DNA of 64,000 nt from Catajapyx aquilonaris (Eukaryota), in contig KZ538519.1 in NCBI GenBank assembly GCA_000934665.2, positions 1 through 64,000 of the forward strand, given 5' to 3'. The notes under the pieces were generated by a model. That model was not told the DNA's origin. It worked only from the letters and a program-made list of their open reading frames with translations, and did no database searches. The translations under genes and the position numbers were made by a program. Each line of letters begins with the position of its first letter. Within the stretch, counting starts at the first letter, position 1. This document shows, piece after piece, positions 57,578 to 60,500 of the stretch.

Positions 57578-60500
57578 CTGGAAAGAAAGAGTTCAACATT
57601 ATTCAAGTCCAATTAGTCAACTAGGAATGCAGTGTGCGACATTTCAAGCAACTTTGGAGCACTGATTCCACTTTTTTTGCTCTATATGTTAGGAAGAATT
57701 CCCAACATGACTTGACTGTCTTTGCTTCTGACAGAATATGACGACAGAATGCAAGGTCAAAGTGGCTATAACTCCACGTGAACATAAATGTCACATACTT
57801 CCTATTGACATATGACAACGTAACACATGGCTCCAGCCACTCCAGTGTTTAAGACACAAAGGAACACACGTAATGATATCAGAAATACGCAGTCATAAGT
57901 AGCAACGTGTTTTTGACTGTGCTTTAAACTTCTATCATGTCTGGAGCCTCACACAAATGAACACTGGTGCTGTATTAGTGACTACCCACTCTGGCTTAGA
58001 TCTCACACTTAAAAGGCACCCCATGCGAGACGAATATTTATCTCGCTGTTTACCTGACCCCGCCTCAACCCAAAGTAGCGACAGACTGGATCACCTTGCT
58101 GAATTCGGGGCAACTGGTGCTCTTTCAGACGGCTATGCGAGTCAAGGATATTGAGAGTAGCCGTAATAAGGGTTCATTTGATGGGTCTCACCTGTCCTCT
58201 TTTGAGCCCAAAGTATCGTGCTACAGGGTCTCCAGCTTGAATTCTCATTAGTTGGTTTTCCTTCAGTTTGCTACACAGGATGGTTAAGGATTAGTTGGGT
58301 AATGTTATTTAATTCACTGGATTATCCAGCAAAAGGATACTATCTGGCCAGGAGTTCCTGCTTTTCTTCCGGGGTCATGACAACATGCTCTGGAACCAGC
58401 TCGTGCTCAGTGATGTTAATTAGCAGCTCAGATTCCAGAAATTGTTCCAGGATGTATTTGGGAGCCATGTCAGTCAATGCCTAAAAAGACAAATTAATTC
58501 ATTTAATTCAATCACAGAAGCACTCAAGTTTCCATATGCTGAAATGTGTCTTTCATGTAATTAGCATTTCGACAATTAAATAAGTATTTTCCTATGTGAT
58601 CTAAAAAATCACATCGTTTGGAATAATGGTTGTGCCATTCTCCACATGAGCAGCTGCAAGGTCAGAGGCATAATATAATGCACAGGTGGGGTGGATGCAT
58701 GGGAAAAACTAGAACTTCCTTATTATGCTCAAATGAAATATTACCTTCTAACAGGCATGCTCACTAATAATGTGGGAACATAATGAGCAACAAAAAGCTG
58801 CTTACCTAAATGTGCAAAGATGCAAAAAATAACTTTTTATACATCTACTGTATATTTGAATGCAAGAAGCATGATGATCCACCCATTTCTTCCGCCAAGG
58901 CCCAAATGCATTTTCCTACTCAGCATGAAGTGCAATTAGGAGACTGCTGCAGTAATTATTTCGCGCACAAACATATATCGAATGTGTTTTCCAATGTGGT
59001 TCGGGGGTCATCCATAACATACGTCATGCACTTACAATGCATAATAATCTGACATAATCGGATGCAACTAGCTCGAAGTCTTAAAAACCAATTCACATAC
59101 GAGCAGCTGCAAGGCCAGAAACACAAGTATGGTGGATGCATGGGAAAATGCATCACTTCCTTACGCTCAAATGAAATATTACCTTTCAACAGGCATGCTT
59201 GCTAATCATGGAACATAATGAGTATTAAAAAACTGGTTACATAAATGTCCATAGTTGAAAGGAGAAAAATTATTAAATTGAAATGCATGCAAGCATGACT
59301 TAATATCTATTCTTCTATCAAAGTCATGGATTTTTAATTGTAATCCTCCTTTAAAAGTTCGGTATTCATTAAACCAAGTGGCTGATCTATTTGGTTGACA
59401 CTTCCCTGTGGAGTGGAATGAACATATGATTTTATCCGCAGTTTAATACTCTTTTTTTGCATTCTGAACTTGGGAATTCTTTGCAATAGTGTCATGAAAC
59501 AACAGTCAGATGTTAACACTAGCTGAACTGCGATTTTTTTTTCTCATTTTGGAGGGTCAGTTAAAAAAAAAAAAGACTAAAAACTGCTGACTTCTTATTA
59601 CTGATGTGTAATGGATCCAATTATTCTCAAAGTCTGCTGTTGGGATTAATCTGCATGACTACGGCAGTTTGGATCTCAGAAGAAAGAAAACCCATTAGGT
59701 CGGCATTAAATTGAATACCTCAACCAAAGCTACATTAAAAAGAGAACTTTCAAATTTGTTAAAAATTTCCTTCTTTTCGTTGTGCAACATCTCTCAGAAA
59801 GTAAAGGTGTTCTGTAACCACAAGGATTGGTTAGAATCATTCGTAAATGGAAGGAAGTGTACCCCACCACGACATAATTTTGGCTCGTGCTTGCAGTGTA
59901 AAGCACTCAACACACAAGAAATGCAATTGACACAGTTTCAGTCAGTAGAACATGAAACTGTGTGGAGTGAATAATGCAACTGAAGCCACACATTTTCTCT
60001 CAAAAAAAGTTGTCTTAATATTTCTTTTAGACCTATTGCAACCATTACGTTTCTTTGCGTTCTGCAAACGTTTCCATGCTGACATATTCAATCATCAAAA
60101 GATGGATTGCGGTTTGGTAAGAAAATCGCTTCATCTGATTAACCCCTTGAGCCCCAGCCACCTAGAATCTAGGCTATGAGAACTCGACCGCGCAGTACTA
60201 GATATACCCGCCATAGCCTAGTTTTCCGCTTACGCATGCGCTGAAGATACGAACGAGATATTTTACAAACAATAACAGCTATACTGGAAAACCGTATGAA
60301 TGTGTTGGACACAATTTTACTAGAAGTCCCTAAATTAATTTCCAAAAATACCGCTGTAAAAACTCGAAATTAAAGTACTGCTGGCCAACTATTAGGCTGA
60401 TTTAATTATGAAATACGTTAAAATATATGGAATAACAATTTTGAGAAGGGTGCCAAATTAATTAATCGCCGTACTTTTCGAGAAATAGGTAAATTTGGGA

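Follow-up and report, generated by a model that had tools for sequence, protein, structure and literature searches.

Tandem exons of equal length with a hybrid U12/U2 intron between them have been described for the JNK genes (MAPK8/9/10, exons 6a/6b) and for TMEM87A/B. In the portions of two reports available to us (PMC1874599, PMC8329584), the hybrid introns of JNK2 and TMEM87A/B are held to be unspliceable and to drive the exclusive choice of one exon or the other. The same portions describe these hybrid introns as a U12 5′ splice site joined to a U2 3′ end, and attribute their origin, following Chang et al., to a duplication in which one exon was copied along with parts of the flanking U2 and U12 introns. 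In JNK, the intron upstream of the pair is U2 type, the intron downstream is U12 type, and two U12 donors compete. Here, we describe a pair of exons in the gene for RPB5 (also called POLR2E or RPABC1) in a stretch of 64,000 nucleotides (nt) of Catajapyx aquilonaris DNA (GenBank assembly GCA_000934665.2, contig KZ538519.1, positions 1 to 64,000), which we call the window. The RPB5 pair joins the known class of mutually exclusive exons with U12/U2 hybrid introns, with a reversed polarity and in an unexpected host gene, a core polymerase subunit and not a kinase.

RPB5 is treated as a single invariant subunit common to RNA polymerases (Pol) I, II, and III. We consider it likely that this arthropod RPB5 gene has its penultimate 79-nt coding exon as two tandem, anciently diverged copies, 5a and 5b, which are used as alternatives. 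The gene in the window lies on the minus strand and, when spliced by translation of the genomic pieces, has six coding exons and 210 codons by either route. The part of the gene on which the argument turns is made up as follows.

58341..58480, minus strand: coding exon 4, 140 nt, encoding 46 residues plus 2 bases of a Tyr codon
58332..58340, minus strand: U12-type 5′ splice site GTATCCTTT, the sole U12 donor in the RPB5 gene
58283..58290, minus strand: U12 branch box TCCTTAAC before exon 5a, 12 nt upstream of a TAG acceptor
58192..58270, minus strand: exon 5a, 79 nt, with the arthropod-typical residues M8, A17, and K23, and a U2-type donor, GTGAGA
58133..58191, minus strand: spacer between 5a and 5b, 59 nt, with a U2-type 5′ end and a U12-type 3′ end, hence a hybrid
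58141..58148, minus strand: U12 branch box TCCTTGAC before exon 5b, 8 nt upstream of a TAG acceptor
58054..58132, minus strand: exon 5b, 79 nt, with the alternative residues P8, C17, and R23, and a U2-type donor, GTAAAC
57578..58053, minus strand: U2-type intron from 5b to the last exon, 476 nt, with the acceptor ctttctttccag
57512..57577, minus strand: last coding exon (exon 6), 21 codons and the stop codon TAA

Exon 4 ends with ...CCAGATA, followed by GTATCCTTTT, and the Tyr codon that is split at this point is completed by either copy of exon 5. The two copies are equal in length and phase and encode 26 residues each. Both are preceded by a branch box 8 to 12 nt from the TAG, with no pyrimidine tract; a U12 branch box usually lies about 8 to 15 nt from the 3′ splice site. 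The intron from exon 4 has a length of 70 nt when it ends at 5a and 208 nt when it ends at 5b. Taking both copies shifts the frame and leads to a stop inside 5b after 13 extra residues, and skipping both leads to a stop immediately after exon 4. The initial annotation of this DNA had proposed the same arrangement, and its coordinates for exon 4, both exon 5 copies, and the start of the last exon at 57577 were reproduced base for base. The U12 donor directly after exon 4, the U12 boxes about 10 nt before each TAG (at 12 and 8 nt), the two U2 donors, and the 59-nt spacer of mixed type were likewise found in the sequence as it had described them, and translation bore out its statement that the frame is not kept with both exons or with neither.

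In the mechanism that we propose, the single U12 donor after exon 4 would pair with either of two U12 branch/acceptor units, the one before 5a or the one before 5b, and the chosen exon would then be joined by its own U2 donor to the U2 acceptor of the last exon. Each route (4-5a-6 or 4-5b-6) would thus comprise one U12 and one U2 intron and yield 210 residues. Because the spacer has a U2 donor and a U12 3′ end without a pyrimidine tract, neither spliceosome should remove it efficiently. The outcome would be two RPB5 proteins of 210 residues that differ at 6 of the 26 residues of this segment, within the C-terminal globe. The hybrid spacer could have arisen by duplication of one exon with parts of the adjacent introns, a scenario of Chang et al. 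that fits the locus. Probably, a transcript contains one exon 5 copy; we infer that the choice may be strictly exclusive and that the two proteins may differ in function.

The initial annotation had invoked the mechanism of the JNK genes. The comparison holds for the tandem pair and for the hybrid intron between the exons; the polarity of that intron, however, is the opposite of the one given in the available text of PMC1874599 and PMC8329584. In RPB5, by contrast with JNK, it is the intron before the pair that is U12 type; the hybrid has its U2 signals at the 5′ end and its U12 signals at the 3′ end, and the competition for a single U12 donor is between two U12 branch/acceptor units. Hence, the RPB5 locus is a mirror image of the JNK layout and not the same layout.

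The gene is RPB5, as the initial annotation had named it. A protein search with exon 4 returned 750 proteins at an expect value (E) of ≤0.001, and among the 120 of these matches that were listed, every named protein is RPB5/RPABC1 or carries its Pfam domains; the closest relatives among the listed matches are arthropod proteins, with 96% identity. Exons 1 to 4 are 94.5% identical to the cockroach and locust sequences, and the C-terminus, ...YRLVV, is that of non-insect arthropods, unlike that of insects. The Rpb5 C-terminal domain, PF01191, matches above the cut-off at profile positions 1 to 26 in exon 4, 28 to 53 in 5a, and 29 to 53 in 5b; even as lone 26-residue peptides, 5a and 5b score 32.0 and 32.6 bits, respectively, where 23.5 is the cut-off. 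Over 210 residues, the spliced 5a form shares 93.3% identity with a scorpion RPABC1 (P0072) that carries PF03871 and PF01191, and from this identity the eukaryote-specific N-terminal domain PF03871 is predicted in the window protein as well. In length (210 residues) and in these two Pfam domains, the window protein is like human POLR2E and Drosophila Rpb5, and insect RPB5 aligns end to end with the structure chain 9mu7_E. One protein, P0004 from Acipenser sinensis (235 residues, source flag UNVERIFIED_CONTAM), has a model in which the part encoded by exons 3 and 4 is duplicated; this repeat is probably an artefact of assembly or annotation and unrelated to the exon 5 pair.

The U12-type motifs at exon 4, 5a, and 5b exceed chance expectation. 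On both strands of the 64-kilobase (kb) window (128 kb in total), RTATCCTTT occurs 3 times against an expectation of 1.4, the exon 4 donor being one of these copies; TCCTTRAC(N5-15)YAG occurs 3 times against an expectation of 1.1, and two of its copies coincide exactly with the 5a and 5b acceptors. Other U12-like matches, at 6027, 46757, and 62726-62748, have no coding context and were taken as chance. The available part of PMC7312986 counts mouse Polr2e among the genes containing a U12 intron.

Exons 5a and 5b share 20 of 26 residues (77%) and 47 of 79 bases. The six residue differences, given as 5a/5b, are K/R1, N/H5, M/P8, A/Q12, A/C17, and K/R23. By the Nei-Gojobori method, about 19.7 synonymous differences fall on 18 synonymous sites, which is saturated, and the proportion of nonsynonymous differences (pN) is 0.21. 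An open frame with this residue identity at saturated synonymous divergence is not what a dead copy would retain. Judged from these comparisons, both exons appear to be functional coding sequences that diverged anciently and have been under purifying selection.

Further support comes from metagenome contigs, which we scanned with a degenerate pattern specific to the C-terminal half of 5b. This gave 11 loci (L001 to L011). Each has a 5b-type exon of the same length (79 nt) and phase, with a U12 box 8 nt before the acceptor (TCCTTAAT in L001 to L010, TCCTTGAC in L011) and a GT donor after the exon. Five of them (L001, L002, L003, L006, and L009) also contain exon 5a, located 2527 to 2650 nt upstream of 5b, behind CCCTTAAC and with the donor GTGGGT. 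The contigs of the remaining six end too soon for 5a, except that of L008, in which none was detected in 2960 nt upstream; in L011, the 459 bases upstream contain no 5a, and the last exon lies 584 nt past 5b on the downstream side. An RTATCCTT donor is absent from the stretches covered at all 11 loci, which in L001 to L010 start short of exon 4, and therefore the donor that serves the U12 acceptor of 5b must lie upstream of 5a. In L001 to L010, exon 5b has 3 variable sites out of 79, all of them third codon positions and synonymous in the RPB5 frame, and the 400-nt flanks on its two sides have 153 and 65 variable columns. Orthologous copies in the window and L001 are identical at 64 of 79 bases for 5a and 57 of 79 for 5b, and cross-comparisons of 5a with 5b, in the window and L001, give 48 to 50 of 79. 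The duplication is therefore older than the split between the lineages of the window and the metagenome. Upstream of 5b in L011 (L011:1-230), there is a long, near-perfect inverted repeat that resembles a miniature transposon.

Exons of the 5b type, which we defined by P at position 8, C or S at position 17, and R at position 23, are also present in other arthropods. They are seen in protein models of a dragonfly, a cricket, and a planthopper, and can be decoded from frameshifted models of a cockroach, a termite, and a locust. Two database isoforms contain the 5b type alone, namely X2 of Anabrus simplex (P0119) and X2 of Lycorma delicatula (P0124), and the model of Ladona fulva (P0111) contains both exon copies. 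Hence, 5b isoforms are already in public annotation, and the raw fact is in the databases. Among the exon 5 segments recovered from 221 proteins, Cys17 is limited to the window 5b, P0119, and P0124. The frameshifted tails were decoded by enumerating all codon pairs for each pair of neighboring residues, which gives the residues allowed in the true frame. The tails of isoform X1 are compatible with the Anabrus 5b at 26 of 26 positions in Periplaneta and Zootermopsis and at 23 of 26 in Schistocerca, and in all three they exclude the 5a residues M8, A17, and K23 and allow the residues of the last exon at 20 of 20 positions. The three species therefore have a 5b-type exon behind 5a. In P0111, the residues TSLTILS before the second copy can be encoded by TTCCTTAAC followed by AG 8 nt later, a compatibility worked out by hand, and a U12 box before the second exon copy of Ladona would fit this stretch. 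A protein search with the 5b frame of the window gave no close 5b relative, its best matches being single-exon forms of hemichordates and echinoderms. In barnacle RPABC1 (P0117 and P0151), the only exon 5 segment seen has R1, P8, and R23, like the window 5b, and A17; barnacles may have kept only a 5b-like exon.

Several observations weigh against alternative use of the two exons as we propose it. The 70-nt intron between exons 4 and 5a and the 8-nt gap between box and acceptor of 5b are short for U12 introns. In the tree described below, the window 5b does not fall with its insect counterparts. In the X1 models of Periplaneta, Zootermopsis, and Schistocerca, 5a runs into 5b and then into the last exon, which means that these models are artefacts or that the spacer is spliced out in some transcripts. 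The initial annotation had said that common joining of 5a to 5b would refute it, and these models of three relatives touch that point: its claim of mutual exclusivity agrees with the hybrid layout and is weakened by them. Among the models, one exon or the other is taken alone in the form of 5b in 2 species (P0119 and P0124), and 5a is followed by 5b in 3. Finally, the 59-nt spacer could block double inclusion sterically as well, in which case the U12/U2 mismatch would not be strictly needed here.

This last point can be extended into an explanation of its own, in which exclusivity is real but mainly steric in this species, the spacer being too short to splice and the mismatch of splice sites incidental. 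The length of the spacer speaks for it, and so does the gap of about 49 nt that separates the 5a donor from the branch box. In the five metagenome loci with both exons, however, the spacer measures about 2.6 kb, and a steric block therefore cannot be the general mechanism; these distant pairs still keep the U12 box of 5b and the U2 donor of 5a, and the box at 8 nt from the 5b acceptor is kept at all 11 loci. We regard a mainly steric cause as improbable. Competing RNA structures of the kind known from Dscam are unsupported, as the fold of 58040-58350 has a z score of 0.5 relative to shuffled sequences.

Slightly less probable still is that 5b is mainly a poison exon, the joining of which to 5a would produce a frameshifted, truncated RPB5 or an unstable mRNA and so tune the dosage of RPB5, with no second protein. 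The X1 models of the cockroach, termite, and locust read in just this way, 5a first and then 5b and the last exon out of frame, and the same joining in the window would give the stop inside 5b mentioned above. A poison exon, however, needs no protein frame of its own, yet 5b keeps 20 of 26 residues at saturated synonymous change and passes the Pfam cut-off by itself. In addition, its three variable sites in L001 to L010 are all synonymous in the RPB5 frame, and two insects have models with 5b only. It is very unlikely that 5b is a leftover of tandem duplication without any use, 5a alone being expressed: nearly all database arthropod RPB5 proteins have the 5a type, but the database is clustered at 90% identity, so that 5b isoforms are presumably mostly hidden behind 5a representatives, and the open frame, the residue identity, the intact splice signals, and the presence of 5b in seven or more other lineages, with variation that is synonymous only, all argue against a pseudo-exon.

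Alternative use of 5a and 5b thus remains our preferred explanation. The proposal of the initial annotation that the animal makes two RPB5 proteins by choice of the 3′ splice site is upheld as far as an old, maintained pair and the 5b-only isoforms of two insects are concerned, and for the window it is conservation that suggests the use of 5b.

In a tree of the 26 columns, the five 5b exons of insects are united in a starred clade (95/96), with the barnacle sequences adjoining (89/83), and the window 5b groups outside this clade with deuterostomes (hemichordate and amphioxus). Forcing all six 5b exons together costs 0.12 log-likelihood units (p value of the approximately unbiased test, p-AU, 0.50); hence, the tree neither demonstrates nor rejects a single origin of 5b. 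The common Cys17 and Arg23 and the nucleotide comparison seem to favor a single origin. The window 5b differs from the hemichordate sequence only at C17 and R23, with a match at 24 of 26 positions, and retains the general metazoan residues H5, P8, and Q12. M8 is present in all of the arthropod 5a segments examined, which cover chelicerates, myriapods, crustaceans, and insects; barnacles, whose exon 5 could be of either type, have P8. A change from Met to Pro takes 2 to 3 base changes. Given M8 in all arthropod 5a exons and this distance, the simplest hypothesis would be that the duplication took place before M8 arose, that is, before the arthropod crown group. As a tentative scenario, with the odds rather against it, the pair would go back over 500 million years, to the stem of the arthropods, 5b would have been lost or overlooked in many lineages, barnacles would perhaps have only a 5b-like exon, and the two proteoforms could be distributed differently among Pol I, II, and III or in germline and soma.

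Where the differences lie suggests what they could do. Exon 5 encodes residues 164 to 189 of RPB5, for which the yeast numbering at this place, as read from the alignment ends, is higher by 5, and the segment includes the invariant Asp of GDP. In the available part of PMC1802627, the yeast counterpart, D182, directly contacts helix alpha-46 of Rpb1, and D182N is lethal; position 1 of exon 5 corresponds to yeast R169, a predicted contact with Rpb6. By this alignment, the six differences between 5a and 5b would surround the Asp contact with the largest subunit. The C-terminal globe grips Rpa190, Rpb1, and Rpc160, and the two proteoforms would change its gripping face. The most concrete hypothesis that we can offer, purely by inference, is that the two forms differ in how strongly they prefer one of the three largest subunits or in how stable they are on it. 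If a second form is indeed maintained, arthropod polymerases would come in two flavors, with the minor spliceosome choosing between them.

Several forms of the usually shared RPB5 within one organism have precedents in RPB5/RPB5z of trypanosomes and NRPB5/NRPE5 of plants. RPB5z is listed as a Pol I subunit of T. brucei in the available part of PMC8311968, and plant structure chains are named "Pol II and IV subunit 5A" (7eu0_E) and "Pol V subunit 5A" (8hyj_E). In the text available to us, the variants of trypanosomes and plants are separate genes that differ over the whole protein, whereas the one gene of the window would give two forms that differ at 6 residues of one 26-residue segment. At the level of the literature searched, a second exon 5 is described neither for human POLR2E nor for Drosophila Rpb5, and a full-text literature search, judged mostly from titles and the openings of abstracts, found no account of an alternative exon in RPB5. 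As it combines a single U12 donor with two U12 acceptors, the locus could be used to study the choice of branch site by the U11/U12 di-snRNP (small nuclear ribonucleoprotein). The U12 intron at the end of exon 4 is seemingly kept wherever 5b is seen, and this may help to explain why rare U12 introns persist.

The remaining parts of the RPB5 gene are as follows.

61644..61700, minus strand: coding exon 1, with the ATG at 61700, 19 codons
61638-61643, minus strand: donor GCAAGT of intron 1, a GC-AG intron
61405..61555, minus strand: coding exon 2, 151 nt
61204..61343, minus strand: coding exon 3, 140 nt, followed by intron 3 of 2723 nt
57431..57436, minus strand: AATAAA, a candidate poly(A) signal read from the sequence, about 75 nt past the stop codon

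Intron 1 is assigned as GC-AG because the reading frame and the acceptor of exon 2 permit no GT donor. Intron 3 contains, on the minus strand, two alike stretches of about 150 nt, at about 58650-58800 and 59080-59230 (…catgcctgtt.gaaggtaatatttcatttgagc…ttttcccatgcatccacc…), which look like a repeated element. The window has Ns at 7322, 11113, 12386, 13492, 32907, 34137-34158, 35244, and 50354, namely single Ns and one run of 22; these are assembly gaps or masked bases, and none lies within the RPB5 gene. Near the gene, at 53723-54283 on the minus strand, there is a long open frame with protein atlas matches to unnamed eukaryotic clusters only, which we take to resemble the N-terminus of ZSWIM8.

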